Notes: generated by a model from the letters alone, not told the origin. 64,000 bases of DNA from Candidatus Multivoradales bacterium (GCA_965248055.1 CBDFIJ010000004.1:3136001-3200000), one strand, 5' to 3'. Shown: positions 721-57,876, counted from the first letter of the stretch. Translations and numbers: made by a program.

Positions 721-2211
721 CTATTGTCGGACTGCTGCCTGGGCGTAGCCGAAGACTTCCGCCGCCGGCTTGTGGCCCAGGTGATCGTCAAGAATGGCGA
801 ATTGCTCAAGAGTGACCTGTGATGGGTGGTCGAAGCCGCAGGCGCGCGCCAGTTGTTGCAGCTCTTTGCGCAAGCTGATGACGTAATTGGCCAATCGGGC
901 CGCTTTGTCGGTGGGGTCGAGGCCGCGCATTAACCATTTGTTTTGGCTGGCAACCCCAGTCGGGCAGTGCCCTGTGTGGCAGCGTTGGGCTTGAATACAA
1001 CCTACTGCGAGCATGGCTTCACGCGCCACCGCGATCAGGTCGCAGCCCATCGCCATTGCCAGTAACCCTCGTTGCGGAAAGCCGAGCTTGCCAGCGCCAA
1101 TGAATACGATGTCGTCGCTCAAGCCGTGGCTGTCGAACAAGGTTCTTACTGCGGCGAACCCCTGTAAGAAGGGTAGTGAGACATGGTCACTGAATACCAA
1201 CGGAGCCGCCCCGGTGCCACCTTCGCCGCCGTCAATGGTGATGAAGTCAAGCTTGCGGTCGCTGCCTACCAGCAAGCCTGTCAGCTGGTGCCAGAAATCC
1301 ATGTCGCCCACTGCGGATTTGATTCCCACCGGTAGTCCACTGTCAGTGGCCAGAGACTCGGCGAAATCGAGCAGCGAGTCGGCATCGCTGAACTCGGTAT
1401 GGTGCGCGGGACTCAGGCAAGCCTCGCCGACCGGGATGCCGCGGATCTCGGCGATCTCAGGGGTCACTTTTTCGGCGGGTAATACACCCCCGAGCCCAGG
1501 CTTGGCTCCTTGAGACAGCTTGATCTCGAGCGCTCGCACCGGACCCTTTTGGATGGTTTCTAAAAAACGCTCGCGACTGAAGCCGCCATCATCGGCGCGG
1601 CAGCCGAAGTAACCGGTACCGATCTGCCACATCAGATCACCGCCATGTAAGTGATGTGGAGCAACCCCGCCCTCTCCGGTGTTTTGCATGCATCCAGCGA
1701 TCGCTGCGCCCCGGTTGATCGCTTCGACCGCCGGCCCACTGAGTGAGCCAAAGCTCATCGCCGAAGTGTTTACCACCGAAGCGGGTCGGAACGCCTGGCG
1801 TCGGCCGCTGGGTCCACCCAGAATCTTGCTGCAACCGACCGGATAGCTCGGGTCGTAGTCCGGGTCTCCAGGATGAGGTGCCGACTTGGGAAAAGTCGAC
1901 TGGCGGATGATCAGGTAGTTGGGCGACCGGGCCAGGTCGTTATCGGTACCAAAGCCAAAGTAGTTGTTGACCCGCTTGGCCGAGGTATAAACCCAGCTTC
2001 GTTGATCGCGGGAAAAGGGGCGCTCTTCGTCGTTGGAGGTGACAATGTACTGGCGTAGCTCCGGCCCGATTGCCTCCAACCAGTATCGGAAGTGTCCGAT
2101 CACTGGAAAGTTGCGCAGGATGGCATGGCGGCGCTGCAATAGGTCGTAGACCACCACCAGCAGAACGAGCAACAAGAGTACGGCGAAGAGAGTGAATAGG
2201 GTTGTCATCAC
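721..2211 (-). CDS. FMN-binding glutamate synthase family protein
   Basis: Motifs SAMSFGSLS, NTGEGG, EIKLSQGAKPG, DGGEGGTGAAP, GCIQAQRCHTGHCPTGVA; N-terminal TM helix. Confidence 0.92.
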   Translation of the reverse strand: MMTTLFTLFAVLLLLVLLVVVYDLLQRRHAILRNFPVIGHFRYWLEAIGPELRQYIVTSNDEERPFSRDQRSWVYTSAKRVNNYFGFGTDNDLARSPNYLIIRQSTFPKSAPHPGDPDYDPSYPVGCSKILGGPSGRRQAFRPASVVNTSAMSFGSLSGPAVEAINRGAAIAGCMQNTGEGGVAPHHLHGGDLMWQIGTGYFGCRADDGGFSRERFLETIQKGPVRALEIKLSQGAKPGLGGVLPAEKVTPEIAEIRGIPVGEACLSPAHHTEFSDADSLLDFAESLATDSGLPVGIKSAVGDMDFWHQLTGLLVGSDRKLDFITIDGGEGGTGAAPLVFSDHVSLPFLQGFAAVRTLFDSHGLSDDIVFIGAGKLGFPQRGLLAMAMGCDLIAVAREAMLAVGCIQAQRCHTGHCPTGVASQNKWLMRGLDPTDKAARLANYVISLRKELQQLARACGFDHPSQVTLEQFAILDDHLGHKPAAEVFGYAQAAVRQ

Positions 2212-2379
2212 GGTGCTTCCAGAGTCTGACTCTACCGGTATTGCTTGGGCTGCGTCATCAGGCGCAACTCTTTGTTGCCAGTTACCGTAGAATAGTTACC
2301 GAGTGTTGCAAGTGCCTGCATGACGGGCAGTGCGATCACTGTAAAGCTGTACCAACAACTACATAAATGAGGAGTCAAG

Positions 2380-3915
2380 ATGGCTAGATTGAATTGGAGA
2401 GGGCTTGTGCTGATCATTCCATTGATCGCACTGCTTGCGGTTCCAGCAATGGCGCAGGATCTGGCGTCGTTCGAGGAGCGAACCAGCACCCACGTATTGG
2501 ACAATGGTTGGACTTTTGTGATCGTCAATCGTCCGGTGGCACCGGTATTTTCCTACGCCACCTTTGCCGATGTCGGGGGCGCCCAGGAAGTTCCTGGTAT
2601 CACCGGGTTGGCTCACATGTTCGAGCACATGGCCTTCAAAGGCACGCCCAACATTGGTACTACCGACTATGAGGCCGAGAAGGTCGCGCTGGCGGAGCTG
2701 GAAGACGCGTATCAGGCCTATCAACGGGCCCGGTCGGCTATGAACCCAGACCAAGAGCAGGTCGACCAACTGTTGGCGGCGTTTGAAGAGAAGCAGCAAG
2801 CGGCCTCCGAGTTCGTGGTCGCCAACGAATTCGGGGAAGTCTTTTCTCGCGAGGGAGGCACGGGTCTCAACGCGTTCACCAATTCCGACGCTACGGGCTA
2901 CTTCTTCTCTCTGCCCGCCAATCGATTTGAACTGTTTGCCTTCCTGGAGTCCGAGCGTTTTCTGCATCCGGTATTTCGCGAGTTCTACAAAGAGCGGGAT
3001 GTGGTGCAAGAGGAGCGCAGGCTGAGAACTGAGAGCAACCCGATCGGGCGCATGATTGAGCAATTTCTCGCCACCGCCTATGTTGCCCACCCCTACAAGC
3101 AGCCAGTGGTTGGTTATATGAGCGATTTACAGGCGTTCACCGCTACCGACGCTCAGGAATTTTTTGAAAAACACTATGGCCCTTCTAACTTGACCACCGT
3201 GATCGTCGGCGACGTAACCGCCGAACAAGTGATGCCGACCATTGAATCTTACTTTGGCCGCATCGCAGCGCGTCCCAAGCCGGAGGCGTTGCGCACCATT
3301 GAACCGGAGCAAATTGCAGAAAAGACGGTGGTACTCGAAGATCCGTCGCAACCGGTTTATGTTGAGGGCTACCACAAGCCTGCAGCGACCGGCCCAGACC
3401 AACCGGTGTGGGATGCCATCGACGACATTCTCTCTGGTGGCCGCGCTTCGCGCCTCTACCGTTCGTTGGTGGAGGACAAGAAGATCGCCGCCCAGACTGG
3501 ATCCTTTGCCTCCTTCCCAGGCAGCAAATATCCCACCATGTGGATTGCCTTTGCCTTTCCCTCCAAGGATGCCAGCAACCAAGAAGTCCAGGCTGCGATT
3601 CATGATGAGATTGAACAGCTCAAGACCGAGCTGGTCAGCGACCAGGAATTGGAGCGATTCAAGACCAAGGCCCGCGCTGGACTGATTCGCGGGCTGCGCG
3701 ACAACCAAGGTATGGCTTTTCAGTTGGTCCAGTTTCAAACCTGGTACGGCGATTGGCGCGAAGCCTTTCGCTACATTGACCGTATCGATGCAGTGACTGC
3801 TGAGGACATTCAACGAGTGATCAAAGAGACTTTGATCCCCAGCAATCGAACGATTGGCATGATTAAAACCGCTGAGACAGAAGAAGACGAAGCGGAACTT
3901 GAGGAGGGTGCCTAA
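2380..3915 (+). CDS. M16 family zinc peptidase, catalytic subunit (secreted)
   Basis: GLAHMFEHMAFKG (HxxEH), NAFT, VVQEERR; signal peptide; RBS GAGGAG. Confidence 0.92.
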   Translation: MARLNWRGLVLIIPLIALLAVPAMAQDLASFEERTSTHVLDNGWTFVIVNRPVAPVFSYATFADVGGAQEVPGITGLAHMFEHMAFKGTPNIGTTDYEAEKVALAELEDAYQAYQRARSAMNPDQEQVDQLLAAFEEKQQAASEFVVANEFGEVFSREGGTGLNAFTNSDATGYFFSLPANRFELFAFLESERFLHPVFREFYKERDVVQEERRLRTESNPIGRMIEQFLATAYVAHPYKQPVVGYMSDLQAFTATDAQEFFEKHYGPSNLTTVIVGDVTAEQVMPTIESYFGRIAARPKPEALRTIEPEQIAEKTVVLEDPSQPVYVEGYHKPAATGPDQPVWDAIDDILSGGRASRLYRSLVEDKKIAAQTGSFASFPGSKYPTMWIAFAFPSKDASNQEVQAAIHDEIEQLKTELVSDQELERFKTKARAGLIRGLRDNQGMAFQLVQFQTWYGDWREAFRYIDRIDAVTAEDIQRVIKETLIPSNRTIGMIKTAETEEDEAELEEGA

Positions 3916-6073: not shown

Positions 6074-6111
6074 CTTCGATCCCAACGCTTGGGGGTTTAT
6101 TCCAGGTATTC

Positions 6112-6143
6112 AAAAAGGCCGCCTTCGGGCGGCCTTTTTTTTT
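6112..6143 (+). terminator. Intrinsic terminator, probably bidirectional
   Basis: AAAAAGGCCGCC-TTCG-GGCGGCC followed by a T9 run; A-tract on the other side. Confidence 0.9.
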
Positions 6144-6161
6144 GTCTTCAACCTGTTTGGT

Positions 6162-6207
6162 GCAGATCCCATCTCCCCACCCACACCCCCTCCAGGGATG
6201 ACATTAG
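6162..6207. repeat. REP-like GTCATCC...GGATC family element
   Basis: GCAGATCCC...GGGATGACATTAG; same ends as copies at 8933-9114 and 44110-44303. Confidence 0.6.
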
Positions 6208-6281
6208 TGCTGTCGATCCTTCCCGTATCGTCGTATCGATCTTGATCAGAAGAGGAAAGGCCGGGCTACAAGGCCGGACCC

Positions 6282-6309
6282 GGGGACACAATACTTTGTT
6301 TGTGTCCCC
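6282..6309. repeat. 10-bp inverted repeat (hairpin) downstream of the NSS operon
   Basis: GGGGACACAA-8nt-TTGTGTCCCC. Confidence 0.55.
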
Positions 6310-6333
6310 TCCCGGAGACGGTCCGAAGCTGAA

Positions 6334-6444
6334 TTAGTCAGGATCGCGATGATCCACCCGCCATAGGTAGATCAAACACGCCAGAAATCCACCCCACAAA
6401 ATGCCGCAGATGAGGGCCATGTAAAGAATTTGCCGGAGGGTCAT
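6334..6444 (-). CDS. NSS transporter small subunit (MetS-like), 36 aa
   Basis: Below ORF-track cutoff: MTLRQILYMALICGILWGGFLACLIYLWRVDHRDPD, one TM helix with LWGG motif; ATGA overlap with the NSS gene stop. Confidence 0.8.
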   Translation of the reverse strand: MTLRQILYMALICGILWGGFLACLIYLWRVDHRDPD

Positions 6445-7907
6445 TTTTCTCCCTCTCCGGCTACTGCTAGACGGCTATTGAGTGCTCGAAAGACCAAGAT
6501 CACCAGCAGCCACTGAGCGACGACGGTTCCCAGACTAAAGGTGCGCATCGGGTCCCACCAATGCTGGGGGTCATAGACCCAGGCGGCTTGATAGAACCAC
6601 CAACCGAGCAACACCACGAACTGAAACGGGATCCACCAAAACACCAGCAGTGCAAACCAGCGACCAACACGCCATTTGGGGCCACGATTGATCCAGTTGT
6701 TGAGCAGCCGCTCAGAACCCACGCTACGCGCGGCCAAAGCGAAGAAGAAACCCGAAACCAGCAGCCCCAGACCCCACACCCAGTCTTGATTGAGAAAGAA
6801 TTCTTGCGACAGTGCGCTCGGCAACCCGAGCAAGAAAGTCAGCGCGACGACGATCGCCAAGGCCCGATGGCGACTAACTCCGAAATCGGCGACGTTGCGC
6901 ACCCCCAGTTCCAGCATCGAGATCATCGAACTCACGGCGGCGATCGACAAGGCCAAGAAAAACAGTGGGGCAAAGATCGAGCTACCTCCGGGGATGCGTG
7001 CCAAGACTTCGGGAAAGTAGATGAAGGTCATGCCGGTTGACGCTGGGCCGGATTCCTGTAGCGCAGCGACTGCCTCGGCGTGGGGCAGTACGGCAAACAC
7101 CGTTGGAATGATCGCCATCGCTGCCAACAGCGAGGCCGAGTTATTTCCCAACCCGGTAATCAAGGATGAAAAAACCAGATTCTGTTTTTCCTTCATGTAT
7201 ACCGCGTAGGTCAACAGCAATCCCCAGCCTGCCCCGGTAGACCAGGCTGACTGGGATAGGGCTTCGAGCCAGATCTTGTAGCCGCCCAATCGTGCCGGCT
7301 CGAAGGAAAACATGAAACTCAAGCCTTGAGAGGCCCCCGGAAGAGTGACGGCACGGATGGCTGACGCGATCAGGATTACGAACAGAGCTGGGATCAAGAC
7401 GCGGTTCACTTTCTCGATTCCCGAGGTGACGCCTCGCCACACCACCCAGGCACAGATTGCCAGGGCGAGAGCGAAAAAGGCCACCTGGATACCTCCGCTG
7501 GCAGCCAAGTGGTCCCAGGTTTGGCGCGCCGAACGATCGTCGAGTTTGCCGCTCACCGCGAGCACGAAATAGTAAGCGCACCAGCCGGCTACCACGCAGT
7601 AATAGAAAGAGATCGCCATGGTGCAAAAGCCGACAAAGGCGCCGCGCCATGCGGTGTGTTTGCCGGTCAATAGCGCGAAGGACCCGACGGTGCCGCGCCG
7701 CGAGCGCTTCCCCATTGAGGACTCAATAATCAGTAGCGGAATCGACCAAGAGAAAAGGAAAAACACCCAAGGCAGCAGAAAAGTGCCGCCGCCATTGGAG
7801 GCCAAGATACGCGGAAAACGCCAAACATTGCCGGTGCCGATCGCCATTCCCAGGGCCGCCAAGATTAGACCCCAGCGAGATGAGAATCGTTCCGTTACTC
7901 TGCTCAT
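6441..7907 (-). CDS. Sodium-dependent transporter, NSS (SNF) family
   Basis: ERFSSRWGLILAALGMAIGTGNVWRFP signature; about 12 TM helices. Confidence 0.93.
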   Translation of the reverse strand: MSRVTERFSSRWGLILAALGMAIGTGNVWRFPRILASNGGGTFLLPWVFFLFSWSIPLLIIESSMGKRSRRGTVGSFALLTGKHTAWRGAFVGFCTMAISFYYCVVAGWCAYYFVLAVSGKLDDRSARQTWDHLAASGGIQVAFFALALAICAWVVWRGVTSGIEKVNRVLIPALFVILIASAIRAVTLPGASQGLSFMFSFEPARLGGYKIWLEALSQSAWSTGAGWGLLLTYAVYMKEKQNLVFSSLITGLGNNSASLLAAMAIIPTVFAVLPHAEAVAALQESGPASTGMTFIYFPEVLARIPGGSSIFAPLFFLALSIAAVSSMISMLELGVRNVADFGVSRHRALAIVVALTFLLGLPSALSQEFFLNQDWVWGLGLLVSGFFFALAARSVGSERLLNNWINRGPKWRVGRWFALLVFWWIPFQFVVLLGWWFYQAAWVYDPQHWWDPMRTFSLGTVVAQWLLVILVFRALNSRLAVAGEGEK

Positions 7908-49350: not shown

Positions 49351-50073
49351 ATGCAACTACTTTTGGTCAGCAACTCGCTGTGCTTTGGTCGTGGTTATTT
49401 AGATCACACAGAATCGGTGGTGAAACGACATTTTGCTGCTGCTGGCGGAGGAACCATTGCTTTCGTGCCGTTCGCCGTCCACGATCAACAGGGATACGGG
49501 GAACGAGTTACAGCGCGACTCGCGGAATTGGATCTGCACGCAACAACGGTCACCGCAGATCAGGTCGGACTCGATCTGCTCAGCAGTGCCTCAGGAATCT
49601 TTGTTGGTGGTGGCAACACCTTTCGTTTACTCGATCAACTGCGTTGTCACCGAATGCTCGAGGTGATCCGCGCTCGGGTGGAGTCTGGCGTTCCCTACAT
49701 GGGTTCAAGCGCTGGGTCGGGCATTGCCGCTCCCACCATCAAGACCTCCAATGACATGCCGATCGTTCAACCGGACAGTTTTGATTCTCTGGGACTGGTC
49801 GACTACCAACTCAATTTGCACTACATCGATACCGATCCCGGCTCGCAGCACATGGGCGAGACCCGCCAGCAACGGCTAGAGGAATATCTAGAAGAAAATT
49901 CAACACCGGTGGTGGCGCTGCGCGAGGGCGCCTGGATCGAAGTGCGCGGCGAAGAACACCGGGTCGGCGGTGAGACCGGTGGCTTGGTGTTTCAGCGGGG
50001 AAGTGAGCCCCTGCCGCTCACCGCTGGCGATCGGTTGGAGTGGCAAGGCGAGTCAAAACTAACGGTTCGCTAG
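49351..50073 (+). CDS. pepE: Dipeptidase E (S51)
   Basis: LLLVSNS, FVPFA, VGGGNTF, GSSAG, TIKTSNDMP, HMGETR. Confidence 0.92.
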   Translation: MQLLLVSNSLCFGRGYLDHTESVVKRHFAAAGGGTIAFVPFAVHDQQGYGERVTARLAELDLHATTVTADQVGLDLLSSASGIFVGGGNTFRLLDQLRCHRMLEVIRARVESGVPYMGSSAGSGIAAPTIKTSNDMPIVQPDSFDSLGLVDYQLNLHYIDTDPGSQHMGETRQQRLEEYLEENSTPVVALREGAWIEVRGEEHRVGGETGGLVFQRGSEPLPLTAGDRLEWQGESKLTVR

Positions 50074-50224
50074 GCTGAAGCGATTTAGGTGCAGCGACTC
50101 ATCTCATCTGGCACTTGTTGCACCTCTTGCCCATGGCACTTGTTGGGCAGCTTGGATACTGATCACACCCATTCCGCAACAATTCGAGTTCTTGATCCTT
50201 CCTCGTGAGATACTTCGTTCTTTG

Positions 50225-50914
50225 ATGAACCTTGCGCCCCTTCTTCTCTTGCTGGTGGCGGGTGTCCCGAGTCAACCAGCCAACAGTCCCTGTAGTCGGG
50301 ATTGCGAAACTCATGTCCACATCATTGTGGGAAGCGAGCAAGAAGGTCCGATCCCAGACTCTCCTTTCTTTCTCGGTGGCGGGCTTGCTCTGCTACTTGC
50401 GCTCGTCGGCTGGTCGGATCAGATCCGTGGTCTTAGTCGCACCGCCCGAGAACGGGAGGTGCAGTTGCTGAGAACCTACGGAATCGAGTGGGCCAAGATC
50501 CAAACTGTCATTCGGCCCCAAGATGAGGACAACCCTTTGGATCGATTGGTTGATCTACTTCGGCTCCTCCCAACTGGAATCGGCGATGAAGTAGGGGCTC
50601 GACTGATCCACAACTTTCAGACCCTTCACCAGATCAGCATGCGACTCTCAAGTCTGTCTACAATTCGCTACTGGCTATTGTTCAGTTTAAGTGTCCAAAT
50701 GCTAGTAGCGGGGGTTCATCTAGGCTCAAGTTGGCTTCCACTTACAGGGCACTACTTCCACTACGCTGCCGGCTCCCTGATCGTCGTAGTCATACTTATC
50801 CTCACTTTGCTCGTAGGACGAGGAGAGTCACGCTTTGAAGTTACCATTGGCCATATCGAGGATGATCTCCGTCTAGCTAGCGACGAAAAAACTCGAGAGG
50901 ATCATGGGCGGTAG
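50225..50914 (+). CDS. Hypothetical multi-pass membrane protein (first gene of QueC-like island)
   Basis: About 3 hydrophobic helices plus an N-terminal hydrophobic stretch; overlaps next gene by 11 nt; start uncertain (50192 or 50225). Confidence 0.65.
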   Translation: MNLAPLLLLLVAGVPSQPANSPCSRDCETHVHIIVGSEQEGPIPDSPFFLGGGLALLLALVGWSDQIRGLSRTAREREVQLLRTYGIEWAKIQTVIRPQDEDNPLDRLVDLLRLLPTGIGDEVGARLIHNFQTLHQISMRLSSLSTIRYWLLFSLSVQMLVAGVHLGSSWLPLTGHYFHYAAGSLIVVVILILTLLVGRGESRFEVTIGHIEDDLRLASDEKTREDHGR

Positions 50915-51275
50915 GCGAGGGGGCAGCCTAACCAACTTAGTAGGTGCTGGGGGCCCAGTAACTAGCGCCAAAGGTGCGCTGACTCGTGCCATTACCAAGG
51001 GCGAACCCAATGCTATCGCTAGCGCCTCCGCTAAGCTCCTAGCCTCCAGTGAACTAGGCCTCGAAGGTCTTCTCTATGGGCTTCGAATTACCCCCTATCT
51101 AGAAGGCAATGCTGAGCGCTTAGGTGGACTTTCGAGGACTGACCGCGAAGAGGACATTAGGGCCGCTTGGGCTGACATCAAGAAACGCACCGAACTACAG
51201 ACAACACAAGAAGTAGACAACGTTGTCGTCAGTGCTGCAATCAACACTCTGGGCAAACCGAGGGGTCCGGACTAG
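50904..51275 (+). CDS. Hypothetical protein, QatB-like N-terminal part (starts MGGRRGGS)
   Basis: GAGGA RBS; Gly-rich flexible N-terminus then helical region; position upstream of a QatC-like gene. Confidence 0.55.
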   Translation: MGGRRGGSLTNLVGAGGPVTSAKGALTRAITKGEPNAIASASAKLLASSELGLEGLLYGLRITPYLEGNAERLGGLSRTDREEDIRAAWADIKKRTELQTTQEVDNVVVSAAINTLGKPRGPD

Positions 51276-51544
51276 TGCCCCCCATAACGATGCAAGGGCT
51301 CGTTTCCGGAATGGTGTTTCAGTTCTTGGACTCTCTCCGCAAGTCACGAGACCTTGAGGAGCGCCACGCGCTCTTGTCCCGGACAGCGAAGGGCGCAACC
51401 ACACGTGAACTGCATCGTCTTTCAGCTTCCACTGCGAAATACATTCTCAACTCTGGACTTGACCTTGAATCCATCGGCACGGAGCAAATCGAGAAGGCTA
51501 TTGAACTAGCTCTTTCAAATAATGTTGATAACTCAAAAACTTAA
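51275..51544 (+). CDS. Hypothetical helical protein (separate gene or frameshifted C-terminus of the previous ORF)
   Basis: TAGTG overlap with previous ORF; its frame is open upstream; overlaps the QueC-like start. Confidence 0.5.
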   Translation: MPPITMQGLVSGMVFQFLDSLRKSRDLEERHALLSRTAKGATTRELHRLSASTAKYILNSGLDLESIGTEQIEKAIELALSNNVDNSKT

Positions 51545-52799
51545 GCAGGTCGAATACTGGCCTGAAGAATGGAGTCAACACCGACTGCCATTCCTTCGTG
51601 AGTACCATCTTGCCCAAGCACGGAATCTCCTTTCTGTTGGTCGAGCAGTCTTTCTCCTTGAACAAGCTTCGCGCAAGAGCGTGATCGAAGAGATCACGAT
51701 TCATCTAGAGCCCTCGCTCTCCAAAGCTGCTGCCAAGGACGTGCTTGAGGCTATTCAGCGGCTAGTTAGGTTCGTTCTTGTTCAACAGGTCAACGTTTCA
51801 CTGGAATTCGACGTCTCTAGTGTCCCGCGTTCACATAGCCCTATAGCGAAAGACAAACCTGGCAAACCGATCTGCCTATTCTCCGGTGGCTTGGATTCTT
51901 TATCCGGAGCTCTTTTCGCCACGAATCAATACAAATCTATACGGGGCGTCTACTGTTCACATCCTCACCAGTCCAGAGTAACCCGGACCGTGCGCCAACT
52001 AGCGGCAGAGGTTTTCGTGCATACATCGGAACCGCTAATCGAAATTCAGGCACCGAAACTCTCTATCTCAGGTTACGCTCAAACCAGAGGGATCTTCTAC
52101 GCACTGTCCGGTGCTGCAGTTGCAGCAGCGCTATCTTCGGACAAACTACTTATTAGCGAAAGTGGCCCTACAATGTTCCAGCCGCCTTTTGCTCCGGCCG
52201 ACAGCGTAACTATGACAACCCACCCCTTTGTCGTAGCTCGAACAAGAGATATCATCGCTCGCTTCCTACCCACGTTGAACATCGACTTGCAGTTCTCGGA
52301 ACTGACAAAGGCTGAAATCGCCGCATTATGTCCTCGACCAGAATTGGTTGAGAGTTGTCATTCATGCGTTTCCCAGAGACTGCCACTGCACGATGGCACT
52401 TGCTACGGTTGTGTCGTTCGACGCCTTGGCACGGCTGTCGCCGGAGTACGTGACACAGAGTACGCCGTGAATCCGCTCGTCGACGAAAAGGCTCATTTCG
52501 GTAACCTCGTGGCCCTCTTGGAATTTTGCAGAGACCTACTACTCGACCGAAATAGCCTTAGTGCCTACCAGACCGGAATTATCGATCAATATCGTAAATG
52601 GGAGCTATTCGAGCGATATGCCTTGGACAACTTCGCGGCGCTAACCCTAGAAAAAGATGGCAGCCTCATTCCACCTGCCAAACAACTTCTGGATCAAGTG
52701 GTAGGTCAGGTTGGCCTTCCCAGATTACTTGACCGAATTCACTCGGTCAGAGGCATTGCAGACCAACCGACTGTCGAGGAAATCTCGATATCTGCCTGA
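51522..52799 (+). CDS. QueC-family PP-loop ATPase, QatC-like
   Basis: CLFSGGLDS, QTRG, LISESG, TMTTHP, LTKAEI, HSC..HDGTCYGCVVRR; N- and C-terminal extensions absent from housekeeping QueC. Confidence 0.85.
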   Translation: MLITQKLKQVEYWPEEWSQHRLPFLREYHLAQARNLLSVGRAVFLLEQASRKSVIEEITIHLEPSLSKAAAKDVLEAIQRLVRFVLVQQVNVSLEFDVSSVPRSHSPIAKDKPGKPICLFSGGLDSLSGALFATNQYKSIRGVYCSHPHQSRVTRTVRQLAAEVFVHTSEPLIEIQAPKLSISGYAQTRGIFYALSGAAVAAALSSDKLLISESGPTMFQPPFAPADSVTMTTHPFVVARTRDIIARFLPTLNIDLQFSELTKAEIAALCPRPELVESCHSCVSQRLPLHDGTCYGCVVRRLGTAVAGVRDTEYAVNPLVDEKAHFGNLVALLEFCRDLLLDRNSLSAYQTGIIDQYRKWELFERYALDNFAALTLEKDGSLIPPAKQLLDQVVGQVGLPRLLDRIHSVRGIADQPTVEEISISA

Positions 52800-53063
52800 C
52801 CCTTACCTCAAACCCAATCCCGATTTATCCCGGCGATAAACCCCATAGAAATCCCTTTGGGACACACCGCCCACACTCCCCATAGTTCGAGCAAGATCCG
52901 AATGTTCCTCCATCGCCTGTACCATGTTCTGCATCTGGCGGGAGCGCTCGGGTTGGCCTTGGAGCAGCAGGCCGTGGGCGCGATCATTGATCATCATCCC
53001 GCACATGTAAGCAGCAGATGCCAGGCGATTACTTGACCCTTCGGTGCTCGACTGAGGTGGCGC

Positions 53064-53918
53064 TCAACGACGCTGGTAGAAAGTCTCGGATCCACTCAAG
53101 AACAAATCAGGGAGTAGGGGCTGACCTGGCTCGACCGCGTAGTGATCGAAGTTGTCGACGCCATGCTGAGCCAAGATCTCTTCGTCGATGATGAACTGCC
53201 CGGTGAGTTCTTGGGAGGGCGTGGTCAGAACGGCGTGGGCGGCGTCGGCCAAGATTTGCGGCTTGCGGCACTTGCTGGGGTCTGCCAGGGGGCCCAGCAT
53301 TGCCAGGGCGGCGGTGGCGATCACGGTGCGTGGCCACAGCGCGTTGACCGCGACGCCTTGGTTCTTGAATTCCTCGGCCATGCCCAGAACGCATAGGCTC
53401 ATGCCGTACTTGGCCATGGTGTAGGCGAGGTGATGGGCGAACCAAACCGGATCTAAATTGGGCGGCGGAGCCAGGGTCAAGATGTGGGGATTGTCGGCCT
53501 TCAAGAGATGTGGCAAGCAAGTCTGCGAGCACAGGAAGGTGCCTCGGGTGTTGACCGACCACATTAGGTCGAATCGCTTCATCGTTGTTTGTAGAGTTGG
53601 AGTGAGCGAAATCGCGCTGGCGTTGTTGACCAGGATGTCGATGCCTCCGAACTTGGCCACCGCCTGCTCAACAGCATCGTGGACCACCGCTTCTTCGCGA
53701 ATGTCGACCCGCAGTGGCAAGGCGCGACCCCCGGCGGCTTCAACTTCTTTGGCGACAGAATGGATGGTTCCCGGTAGCTGCGGATGGGGCTTGTCGCTTT
53801 TGGCAGCGATGACGATATTGGCTCCGTCTCGGGCGGCTCGAAGAGCGATTTCCCGACCGATACCGCGGCTGGCGCCGGTGATAAACAGAGTCTTGTCTTG
53901 CAGGCTTGCTTGGCTCAT
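53064..53918 (-). CDS. SDR family oxidoreductase (HSDL2/citronellol dehydrogenase-like)
   Basis: ITGASRGIG, LVNNASAI, YTMAKYG, ALWPRT; GGAGG RBS. Confidence 0.92.
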   Translation of the reverse strand: MSQASLQDKTLFITGASRGIGREIALRAARDGANIVIAAKSDKPHPQLPGTIHSVAKEVEAAGGRALPLRVDIREEAVVHDAVEQAVAKFGGIDILVNNASAISLTPTLQTTMKRFDLMWSVNTRGTFLCSQTCLPHLLKADNPHILTLAPPPNLDPVWFAHHLAYTMAKYGMSLCVLGMAEEFKNQGVAVNALWPRTVIATAALAMLGPLADPSKCRKPQILADAAHAVLTTPSQELTGQFIIDEEILAQHGVDNFDHYAVEPGQPLLPDLFLSGSETFYQRR

Positions 53919-54004
53919 GAATTCCTCCAGGCCGGATGATACTTTCTTCGCGATCGGAGGGGGCGGTTCCCTCCCATTTGCAGTCAATCGACAAAGGACG
54001 ACTC

Positions 54005-56460: not shown

Positions 56461-57309
56461 TCACTGGCTGTTGGTGCGGTCTTGGGTGGAGGAATCGAGC
56501 TGATCAGCCAAGGATGACAACAAGACTTCAGCCGGGTTGCTCAGGTGGATGATACGGCTGCCCGGTGGCGGCGGGGCATGGGGATCGATCGAAAACATCT
56601 GCGCCTTGGAGTCCCAGCCAGCGCGGATAAGCATGTCGGTAATTCCCACTGAGAACGAGGTGCCGACAAACATAATCAGGTTTGCAGCGCGTGCGCATTC
56701 CAGTACCTGGTCGATCCGGTAGTCCAAGTGGCTGTCGTAGTACTCGTCAAAGAACAATACATGGGGCCGAAGCACAGAACTGCATTCGGGACAGTGTGGC
56801 AAGGTTTCCTGGGACGGCTTGGTGCGAAATGACGCAAGGTCGATCTGCGCTCGGTCGATGGAACCGGCTGGTGCCGCGCGAGAACAGCTCCTCGCCGAGC
56901 AGCGGAGTCGACTCGCAGTGCCGTGGACCTTGATCAGTTCCTGACTACCAGCGCGCTCGTGCAGTGGGTCGATATTCTGTGTGACGACGGTAAATGCTTG
57001 GGAGCGTTGTCTCGCCCAGCGCTCCATCTCGACCAAAGCGAAGTGAGCTGGGTTGGGTTGGGCCGAGTCCACCGTAGCAAAACGGTCCAAATACCAACGC
57101 CAGTGCCCAACTGGGTCCCTTTCGAGCATGCCGCGGGTCGCCATTTCTAGGTCGTGCACATTCCAGATGGCGCCTGGGTCTGAGCCACGAAAGGTTTGAA
57201 TGCCGCTGGCACGGCTGATCCCGGCTCCGGTGACGATCAAGATCTCGGTTCCGGTCTCGATAAATGCATCCAAGAGTTGCTGCGACGGATTTGTTGGCAG
57301 GTCTGTCAT
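56461..57309 (-). CDS. Sir2-family NAD-dependent deacylase
   Basis: TGAGISRASGIQTFRG, TQNID, HG, CxxxxC..CPEC, GTS; start ATG 57309 chosen. Confidence 0.9.
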   Translation of the reverse strand: MTDLPTNPSQQLLDAFIETGTEILIVTGAGISRASGIQTFRGSDPGAIWNVHDLEMATRGMLERDPVGHWRWYLDRFATVDSAQPNPAHFALVEMERWARQRSQAFTVVTQNIDPLHERAGSQELIKVHGTASRLRCSARSCSRAAPAGSIDRAQIDLASFRTKPSQETLPHCPECSSVLRPHVLFFDEYYDSHLDYRIDQVLECARAANLIMFVGTSFSVGITDMLIRAGWDSKAQMFSIDPHAPPPPGSRIIHLSNPAEVLLSSLADQLDSSTQDRTNSQ

Positions 57310-57354
57310 GGTGTGAAAATTGTGCGGCGTTACTCTCTCGACTGGGCCGCGCCG

Positions 57355-57360
57355 TAGAAT
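57355..57360 (+). promoter_or_regulatory. Putative -10 element for a leaderless fmdB-like/murJ operon
   Basis: TAGAAT at -12..-7 of the GTG at 57367; no Shine-Dalgarno. Confidence 0.45.
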
Positions 57361-57366
57361 ACGACG

Positions 57367-57876
57367 GTGCCGATCTATGAGTTCTACTGCGAAGCTTGCC
57401 ACACCGTCTACAGCTTCCTTTCGCAGCGGGTCGATTCCGAGGTGGTGCCGGCCTGTCCAACCGAGGAGGACCACCAGCTGCAGCGCAAGCCGTCCCAGTT
57501 CGCCACTATTTCCAGCAGCGATCAGAAACTTGGTGATGACGAAATGATTCCCGGTGTTGACGAGGATCGGTTAGAGCGAGCGGTGGATCAATTGGCGGGT
57601 GAATTTGAGCATGGCAATGTGGACGCAGATGACCCCAAGGTCATGGCGCAGATGTTTCGCCGCTTCGGCGAGGCGGGTGGCTTGAAACCGGGGCCGATGA
57701 TGGAAGAGATGCTGGCGAAACTGGAGAGCGCCGACGACATCGAACAGGTGGAAGCTGAGTTTCAAGGGCTGGACGACAGCGAGGCAGACGTCGAACAGTT
57801 CTTCCAGGTGCGCAAGGCTTTGCGCGATCGCTGTCAACGCCAACCACAGGTCGACGAGACCCTCTATTTTCTCTAG
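57367..57876 (+). CDS. FmdB-family zinc ribbon protein
   Basis: MPIYEFYCEAC..ACP; acidic helical C-terminus with DDPKVMAQM. Confidence 0.85.
   Translation: MPIYEFYCEACHTVYSFLSQRVDSEVVPACPTEEDHQLQRKPSQFATISSSDQKLGDDEMIPGVDEDRLERAVDQLAGEFEHGNVDADDPKVMAQMFRRFGEAGGLKPGPMMEEMLAKLESADDIEQVEAEFQGLDDSEADVEQFFQVRKALRDRCQRQPQVDETLYFL

Follow-up and report, generated by a model that had tools for sequence, protein, structure and literature searches.

We describe a four-gene cassette, g1 to g4, in a stretch of 64,000 nucleotides (nt) from Candidatus Multivoradales bacterium (GCA_965248055.1 CBDFIJ010000004.1:3136001-3200000; the whole stretch is referred to as the window). The cassette is best read, with a probability of about 0.55, as a mobile module in which a QatC-like enzyme would modify the N-terminal glycine of its partner protein, as proposed for the Qat defence system, and which is wired to a dedicated membrane protein. 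An initial annotation, made from the sequence alone, had proposed such a QatBC-like module joined to a multi-transmembrane (TM) protein in an arrangement not previously described. The present analysis supports that proposal, with the roles in defence and as effector remaining analogies. Full-text literature searches, outside which most subscription papers lie, returned no description of this four-gene architecture. The four genes are (aa, amino acids):

50192-50914, + strand: g1, membrane protein of 240 aa from a TTG start (an alternative ATG start at 50225 gives 229 aa, the form in the collection's copy)
50904-51275, + strand: g2, 123 aa, N-terminus MGGRRGGSLTNLVG..., the presumed substrate
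51275-51544, + strand: g3, small protein of 89 aa from a GTG start (alternative ATG at 51290)
51522-52799, + strand: g4, PP-loop enzyme of 425 aa, recognised as an open reading frame (ORF) and by its motifs

The overlaps in the ORF scan are 11 nt (g1/g2), 1 nt (g2/g3) and 23 nt (g3/g4), and a Shine-Dalgarno-like GAGAGGA stretch lies upstream of the g2 ATG. The same arrangement recurs elsewhere. Among genomes scanned at one per species, 49 pattern matches yielded 20 confirmed loci, 9 in Acidobacteriota, 3 in other bacteria and 8 in archaea (Aenigmatarchaeota, Woesearchaeota twice, Nanoarchaeota, Pacearchaeota, Thermoplasmata, 'Gagatemarchaeum' and Nitrososphaerota); a metagenome scan gave 139 relatives, the best 80 loci of which were used. 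Six-frame translations of 101 loci (a slice of the window and 100 others) were searched with profiles of g1 to g4 (alignments A1-A4). For counting, g4 was clustered at ≥90% identity into 89 clusters with one representative each, a cluster being testable when it had enough upstream DNA. The gene for g2 was found in 65 of 67 testable clusters, upstream of g4 and with g3 alone intervening, and that for g1 in 50 of 57. The g3 profile, a weak one, gave matches in 60 of 75; among the 15 misses, the 12 with g2 all hold an ORF of 83-123 aa in the gap between g2 and g4, and the others are L015, L021 and L064. Gene order and the N-terminus of g2 recur in dozens of independent loci and are therefore not due to chance. 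The initial annotation had left g3 out of the title of its system; g3 proves to be a conserved member, and the other three genes stand as described there.

The enzyme g4 and its relation to QatC

The enzyme consists of a QueC-type core with N- and C-terminal extensions. QatC is its top family in PADLOC (E 3.1e-15), in NCBIfam and among solved structures. The score on the NCBIfam equivalog for QatC, NF041925 (63.1 bits, E 2.1e-17), does not reach the curated cut-off of 280 bits, whereas canonical QatC proteins from the phylum of the window score 300-522 bits. With the Pfam model of QueC, PF06508, the score is 21.8 bits against a cut-off of 22, and residues 117-164 in the PP-loop region alone are matched. 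A profile of 35 members of the g4 family found QatC among solved chains (9vlk_A, 6.9e-14; 9zee_B, 2e-10), with QueC at 2.5e-4 (3bl5); the alignment to 9vlk_A spans query residues 59-317 and leaves the first ~58 residues and the C-terminal extension outside.

The g4 motifs that had been listed from the sequence are all present in the translation and fall on invariant or near-invariant columns of the 35-sequence alignment: SGGLDS (121-126), TMTTHP (230-235), LTKAEI (261-266) and SC..HDGTCYGCVVRR (281-300). Invariant in 35/35 are S121, G123, D125 and S126 of the SGGxDS motif and T230, T232, H234 and P235, the latter aligning to TRTTHP of 9vlk and 9zee; E213 and G215 (ExG) and T262 and K263 of P(x)4TK (P257 in g4) are likewise invariant. 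In QatC, two threonines take the place of the Tyr/Asp that bind 7-carboxy-7-deazaguanine (CDG) in QueC and Cap9, and both are essential (T278/T280 of PaQatC; PMC13279940). ExG, HP, P(x)4TK and C...CGxCxxRR are given as the motifs of the QatC cluster (PMC13329287, excerpt; here and below, 'excerpt' marks a source available in part). The putative Zn site of g4 comprises C282, D291, C294 and C297. Its three cysteines are invariant (35/35) and the family shares CxxCxxRR, whereas the second ligand is Asp in ≥90% of sequences, the spacing is C(x)11C and the four-Cys site of QatC, C(x)19CGxCxxRR, is not matched. The replacement of one expected Cys by Asp, already remarked on in the initial annotation, is evident where HCGRCVPC of QatC aligns with HDGTCYGC; a few archaeal members have Cys at this position.

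In a quick maximum-likelihood tree the g4 family forms one clade (SH-like approximate likelihood ratio support 95), sister to QatC together with QatC variants (91), and QueC is split off (100). The tree had 55 rows: from the 71 full-length representatives of g4 clusters, alternate ones were taken for speed (36), and to these were added 5 QatC above the cut-off and 8 QatC variants from the phylum of the window, as well as 6 canonical QueC from host genomes; the unpublished L028 was left out. Judged by sequence, g4 is thus neither a housekeeping QueC nor a canonical QatC and belongs to a distinct sister clade of QatC. Its homologues are not found in complete qatABCD operons either. Profiles of TatD/QatD (five genes) and QatB (seven genes), both drawn from canonical Qat or Qat-like loci in the same phylum, had 0 matches in the six-frame translations of the 101 loci, and the QatB model NF041924 had none in the window's own genome at E≤1. 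QatA is absent from the top 25 Pfam families of 82 neighbouring proteins, among which no search with a QatA model was made.

The genome of the window (97.7% complete) raises the question whether g4 replaces a missing housekeeping QueC and makes preQ0 for tRNA queuosine. Adjacent genes for queD (PTPS, 136 bits) and a queE-like radical-SAM protein (80.6 bits) lie at G000:C4:1787821-1788746, and the sole TGT gene found is at C4:2727043, away from the cassette. There is no canonical QueC in this genome; the best match to TIGR00364 (23 bits) lies in a 701-aa frame, and the g4 locus is not among the matches to this model. However, canonical QueC over the cut-off is also missing from 25 relatives (0/25), which do not have g4, and its lack is a lineage trait independent of g4. 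Moreover, the island that carries g4 is an insertion 1.4 Mb away from queD/queE, g4, like QatC, has Thr/Thr where QueC has its CDG-binding Tyr/Asp, QatC of E. coli did not complement a queC deletion (PMC13329287, excerpt), and in 8 of the 20 other hosts the cassette coexists with a canonical QueC over the cut-off. A replacement of QueC by g4 is accordingly most improbable. CDG may be made in this lineage without any known QueC or with one that has escaped recognition, and it may be available in this host.

The partner g2, its N-terminal glycine and the small protein g3

The protein g2 begins M-G-G-R-R-G-G-S..L-V-G. Its first ~8-16 residues are flexible and are followed by a five-helix domain; in the AlphaFold2 model (mean predicted local distance difference test score, pLDDT, 82.6) a low-pLDDT tail precedes the five helices. 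M1, G2, R4 and G14 are invariant in the 14 sequences of alignment A2. Across the 65 clusters of the census, position 1 is encoded by ATG in 54, GTG in 8, TTG in 2 and ATA in 1, position 2 is Gly in 65/65 and position 4 Arg in 65/65, whereas position 3 is Gly in 63 and Ser in 2, position 5 Arg in 47, Lys in 16 and Thr in 2, and position 14 Gly in 58. All four Gly codons are used at position 2 and all six Arg codons at position 4, and selection therefore acts on Gly2 and Arg4 as residues. Since the spacing between g1 and g2 varies across loci from overlap to tens of bases, the MGGR motif is not a by-product of gene overlap. The conservation of the N-terminal glycine and of the TM gene that the initial annotation had presumed is hence found in 65/65 and 50/57 testable clusters, respectively.

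A complex of g4 with g2 residues 2-123, ATP and Zn was predicted with a score of 0.84 (runs 0.83, 0.84 and 0.84), the best of 3 controls reaching 0.00; in calibration, 58 of 80 solved complexes and 2 of 110 mismatched pairs attained the corresponding mark. The runs concurred in ≥68% of contacts, and the partner had a pLDDT of ≥61. Confident contacts connect g4 residues 54, 56, 80-89, 187, 222-228, 235-236 and 347-356 with g2 residues 77-118. On the side of the enzyme they involve the N-terminal extension, the loop beside the TxT-HP motif and the C-terminal extension, and they take in the invariant columns F223, D227, P235 and I354. The model supports, in silico, binding of g2 by g4. The solved QatBC interface is similar in kind, being formed by an active-site loop and a C-terminal extension (PMC13279940).

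In Pfam and NCBIfam no family matched g1, g2 or g3, and none did so credibly in PADLOC. Fused forms of g2 were not seen among proteins of 280-2000 aa; this is weak evidence, and fusions of ~220 aa lie outside the range covered. The 89-aa g3 is helical and conserved in place, and weakly so in sequence (alignment A3, 16 loci, mean column identity 27%). It may be a second small subunit or an adaptor. Matches of g3 to BrxF/Cas7 in PADLOC (E 0.006-0.02) and to DevR in NCBIfam (0.069) were rejected as chance, being short and far under the cut-offs.

Some loci depart from the common form. In two of Nitrososphaerota type that lack g1 (L018 5230-5685 and L020 5149-5628), g2 is longer (151-159 aa): MGGRRGGS is followed by a run of glycines, and the protein also has a hydrophobic, Ala-rich stretch and is extended at the C-terminus; their g4 keeps Cys at the Zn position that is Asp elsewhere, and in L018 a 265-aa TM protein directly follows g4. 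This three-gene archaeal form, g2-g3-g4, falls in the g4 clade of the tree. There are also signs of decay: in L009 (775-1131) the start codon of g2 is ATA, giving Ile-Gly-Gly-Arg-Thr, and g1 is shortened to 106 aa, in L015 (5989-6861) g4 lacks the first ~130 profile positions and g1-g3 are gone, and in L004, L014 and L017 g4 is split over two frames. The Aenigmatarchaeota contig L004 has, at a distance of 1.6 kb downstream from the split g4, an ORF of 296 aa (2990-3880) starting MGGSASPSGYDY..., which encodes another Met-Gly-Gly protein. In L034 and L035 an enzyme resembling QatC is paired with a protein encoded upstream whose start is not Met-Gly (MPDG.. and MALF..).

The membrane protein g1 and the inserted island

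The membrane protein has 3-4 TM helices. An N-terminal signal-like or TM helix and a disordered linker precede TM1 (about 57-79), which is followed by a helical domain (83-128) and by TM2 and TM3 inside long helices (133-178 and 185-238; AlphaFold2 model, mean pLDDT 80.1). The soluble helical domain is probably cytoplasmic, as positive charges follow TM1, and the C-terminal helix probably faces the cytoplasm as well. The gene is homologous to that in the same slot of 11 other loci (alignment A4). An exhaustive HMMER search of 1.84 billion representatives found 189 relatives at E≤0.001, the best 150 of which are 69-390 aa long and without large fusions among the matches listed. For g4, 140 relatives came from a word-limited search and 139 loci from the metagenomes, the counts for g1 and g4 being drawn from different libraries. 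The g1 family is about as small as that of g4, which suggests that g1 is a dedicated component of the cassette. In the ESM Atlas, g1 matched unnamed clusters only (top score 0.86).

Among the seven testable clusters without g1, another TM protein on the same strand stands beside the cassette in L018, L075 and L107, a convergent TM ORF lies about 10 nt downstream in L071, and a TM ORF on the opposite strand lies about 120 nt upstream in L069. The cassette adjoins a methylase in L020, and in L090 a DUF6602 protein, with HsdR nearby. The protein in the g1 slot of L107 (3953-4333), directly upstream of g2, has 126 aa and a single TM helix; it matches the BhlA holin family weakly (E 5.7e-4, 20.2 bits, cut-off 22.6).

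The surroundings of the cassette comprise the following features:

49351-50073, + strand: Peptidase_S51 (pepE-like) gene, left flank (Pfam 1.4e-48)
50001-53075: inserted island of 3,075 nt, compared with 189 nt in the same-genus genome G001
52803-53006, - strand: ORF of 67 aa at the right end of the island, no Pfam family
53064-53987, - strand: short-chain dehydrogenase/reductase (SDR) gene (adh_short), right flank (Pfam 1e-34)
56461-57474, - strand: SIR2-family gene, 337 aa, 3.7 kb downstream of the island

The initial annotation had placed four overlapping ORFs in an AT-richer island between pepE and an SDR gene, and the ORFs, the Pfam matches of the flanks and the base composition agree: G+C is 0.48-0.56 across 50400-52800 and 0.575-0.62 in the flanks. 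In G001 the orthologues of pepE and SDR are only 189 nt apart (DNA comparison; query 2659-3001 maps to G001:C1:919530-919872 and query 6077-7571 to G001:C1:917815-919340). Because this gap is 3,075 nt here, the cassette is an insertion relative to that genome. Besides g1-g4 the island holds the 67-aa minus-strand ORF alone, and there is therefore no space for queD/E/F, tgt, a KAP NTPase, TatD or a CD-NTase, in agreement with the earlier statement that queD/E/F, tgt, P-loop NTPase, TatD and CD-NTase genes are not adjacent. Genes farther out are ordinary (S1, HD, CMD, Peptidase_M28 and SIR2); the SIR2-family gene is probably a housekeeping deacetylase. Scans of the island region for tRNA and Rfam families gave no match, and a promoter and terminator scan of the locus gave no excess over shuffled expectation. 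The segment 52800-52977 of the window has an 83%-identical copy elsewhere in G001 (G001:C1:110491-110670) and weaker copies in two other relatives. The 67-aa ORF may represent a small paralogous gene, or else a mobile or attachment-related segment.

The cassette is a self-contained accessory element, horizontally mobile and patchily distributed. The gene for g4 is present in 1 of 41 genomes searched, that of the window (G000), and in none of its 40 relatives; of 251 genomes from the class of one Acidobacteriota host, the centre genome alone has it. The small size, the insertion, the patchy spread and the presence of a membrane protein would also fit an addiction module of a mobile element, similar to a toxin-antitoxin pair, with g1 as a membrane toxin restrained by g2-g4. 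We regard this as improbable, as the island showed no sign of an integrase, transposase, tRNA or repeat boundary and a 425-aa ATP-dependent enzyme would be unusual as an antitoxin. Such a module overlaps with defence by abortive infection and does not exclude it.

Proposed mechanism and known systems

The mechanism that we propose for a QatBC-like module rests on analogy with Cap9/CD-NTase and QatC/QatB. Methionine aminopeptidase would take Met1 off g2 and leave Gly2 free on a short flexible tail, while g4 would grip the helical domain of g2 through its N-terminal extension, the loop adjacent to the TxT-HP motif and its C-terminal extension. With ATP, g4 would adenylate a carboxylate, either CDG or, given the Thr/Thr pocket, some other acid, and join the activated acid to the alpha-amine of Gly2. 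Tagged or untagged, g2 could then control the 3-4-TM protein g1 together with g3, and the most likely outcome on phage attack would be loss of membrane integrity as a form of abortive infection. By the same analogies, Gly2 is probably the acceptor and the cassette is somewhat more apt to be anti-phage than to serve otherwise. That g1 acts as the effector is nearly an even matter, and a deazaguanine as the adduct is a minority possibility.

Several observations weigh against this reading. In the predicted complex, which was run with its own alignments and ligands, unlike the calibration, g2 residues 2-76 lie outside the confident contacts and Gly2 is not placed in the active site; of the expected model with the Gly tail in the enzyme, only the binding of g2 is thus supported by prediction. 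Two of the 67 testable clusters have g4 but neither g2 nor g3 (L015, with a truncated g4, and L021). The term 'QatB-like' in the initial annotation holds for g2 by analogy of place, Gly terminus and helices, and no sequence or fold match to QatB accompanies it. Profile searches of g2 and g3 against all chains of the Protein Data Bank (PDB) at E≤10 listed no QatB, hhalign against seven QatB, each with an MG(T/S)S start and taken from a Qat or Qat-like locus in the phylum of the window, gave probabilities of 0.2% for g2 and 1.2% for g3, and Foldseek of g2 against the PDB had no match at E<1. A wide VIA-align comparison of g2 reached Z 6.9 at best, with unrelated small helical domains and no QatB row, which does not show the folds to be different. 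For g1, Foldseek gave weak rows (TolQ/ExbB-type chains, probability 0.5-0.66, TM-score about 0.3) from which no conclusion was drawn, and VIA-align gave generic long-helix matches (Z ≤9.3) under the chance level for helical models. The attachment of a deazaguanine to Gly, which had been put forward as known, was too strongly worded for QatC: its activity on QatB has not been reconstituted in vitro and the reaction is called unresolved (PMC13279940; PMC13639016, excerpt). One group did find an NDG-modified QatB peptide by liquid chromatography-tandem mass spectrometry (PMC13639016, excerpt). As to defence, 12 pattern matches in viral contigs included no g4 relative, and the 82 ORFs that neighbour the cassette in the 20 genome loci form a diverse set dominated by housekeeping genes (3 DNA methylases, 2 ResIII), which makes for a weak defence-island signal, judged on raw counts. 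Finally, a search at E≤1e-5 detected neither QueD/PTPS nor QueC in four of the five DPANN hosts; their metagenome-assembled genomes (MAGs) are 0.5-1.3 Mb in size and incomplete.

The unplaced tail and the lack of a reconstituted QatC reaction would also fit a g2 that is not the substrate. The enzyme could instead modify a small molecule, a nucleic acid or a phage component, with g2 and g3 as regulators or scaffold. MGGR(R/K) would then be conserved for another reason, such as attachment to g1, a nucleic acid or the membrane, and its basic Arg-Arg/Lys pair might contact lipids or nucleic acids. This is rather improbable, considering that Gly2 follows the start codon directly in every testable cluster with g2, that g4 keeps a QatC-type pocket, that a modified QatB peptide was observed, and that the terminus parallels MGGS of type IV CBASS CD-NTases and MGTS of QatB, in which the G2D mutation abolishes defence (PMC13279940).

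The same chemistry might also serve a non-viral purpose, as a post-translational switch for a membrane function, for instance in envelope stress, transport or cell-cell conflict. The housekeeping character of most neighbours and the viral contigs without a copy fit such a role, as does the absence of known defence proteins from the cassette in PADLOC. We consider it unlikely, if less so than a role for g2 other than as substrate. The distribution is extremely patchy and crosses domains, the cassette is inserted here, and restriction-modification genes abut some loci. The g1 slot is open to different TM or other proteins, and a variable protein in the effector slot is usual for defence systems. 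Furthermore, the sole characterised relatives of this type of enzyme, QatC and Cap9, are anti-phage according to the sources available (PMC13279940; PMC13329287, excerpt).

PTPS/QueD occurs in 14 of the 20 other host genomes and QueC, at E≤1e-5, in 12, and the four DPANN MAGs with neither hint that the tag need not be a host-made deazaguanine; the Thr/Thr pocket of g4 and the unsettled chemistry of QatC agree with this hint. A bolder proposal, to which we attach a low probability, is that the cassette represents a third, independent lineage of Gly-tagging immunity in Bacteria and Archaea, in which a QatC-sister enzyme tags the ~120-aa g2 to gate a membrane pore. The tag might then be a new modification and not 7-deazaguanine, because of the DPANN hosts without a detected deazaguanine pathway and the Thr/Thr pocket.

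Tagging of the first glycine of a protein by the QueC family was recognised only in 2025-2026, and for QatC both the adduct and the downstream mechanism are unsettled. The cassette would offer a compact variant, with a short-tailed partner of 120 aa, an invariant and easily mutated Gly-Gly-Arg terminus, and a dedicated membrane protein as the obvious candidate output in place of QatA and QatD. It also has members in hosts that seem to lack deazaguanine synthesis, and these features together could make the attached group and the switched output testable. If the reading is true, Gly-tagging immunity would extend to archaea, including DPANN lineages.

Canonical QueC (TIGR00364/PF06508; 3bl5) has the PP-loop fold, the ATP motif and a Cys-rich metal site in common with g4, which differs in scoring under both family cut-offs, in missing the substrate motifs, in being twice as long and in having no queD/E/F context. 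Cap9 of type IV CBASS (cyclic-oligonucleotide-based anti-phage signalling system) also belongs to the QueC family; once Met has been removed from its partner, it acylates the alpha-amine of Gly2 there (10.1101/2025.04.06.647259, excerpt), and the partner starts MGGS where g2 starts MGGR, with Gly-Gly in both. However, Cap9 has about 185 aa, compared with 425 aa in g4, and keeps the CDG-binding Tyr/Asp of QueC and other catalytic motifs (PMC13329287, excerpt). The partner of Cap9 is a CD-NTase and, as far as the sources available describe it, the TGT-like Cap10 acts as the reader; no such genes are in the island. Within the same phylum, four loci (L030-L033; partner about 542-1355, enzyme about 1339-3447) hold another uncatalogued QatC variant, a 589-702-aa fusion directly preceded by a 257-268-aa protein of the form MGH.RLG..P(R/K)T. 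They share the principle of a Met-Gly partner, but have no g1, and the fusion falls in the QatC-variant clade and not in that of g4.

The closest known system is QatBC (9vlk/9vll, 9zee/9zef). Its enzyme, like g4, is an enlarged QueC-fold PP-loop protein, with extensions of similar size in g4, and both have SGGxDS, Thr-x-Thr-x-His-Pro in place of the Tyr/Asp of QueC, ExG, P(x)4TK and CxxCxxRR. QatB and g2 are both helical partners encoded upstream of the enzyme that start Met-Gly on a flexible tail. QatB and QatC alone suffice against lambda-vir (PMC13279940); defence without QatA and QatD parallels a cassette without KAP NTPase or TatD nuclease. The differences lie in the partner, the additional subunits and the range. 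The length of g2 is 118-159 aa, compared with about 260-290 aa in QatB (PMC13279940; PMC13639016 and PMC13376578, excerpts), and it starts MGG(R)(R/K) with a tail of ~16 residues, whereas in the same partly available sources QatB starts MGTS, with a tail of 30-90 residues and a ten-helix domain. The cassette adds the small protein g3 and the multi-TM protein g1, has mostly Asp as the second Zn ligand and, compared with Qat, has a range that includes DPANN and Nitrososphaerota archaea.

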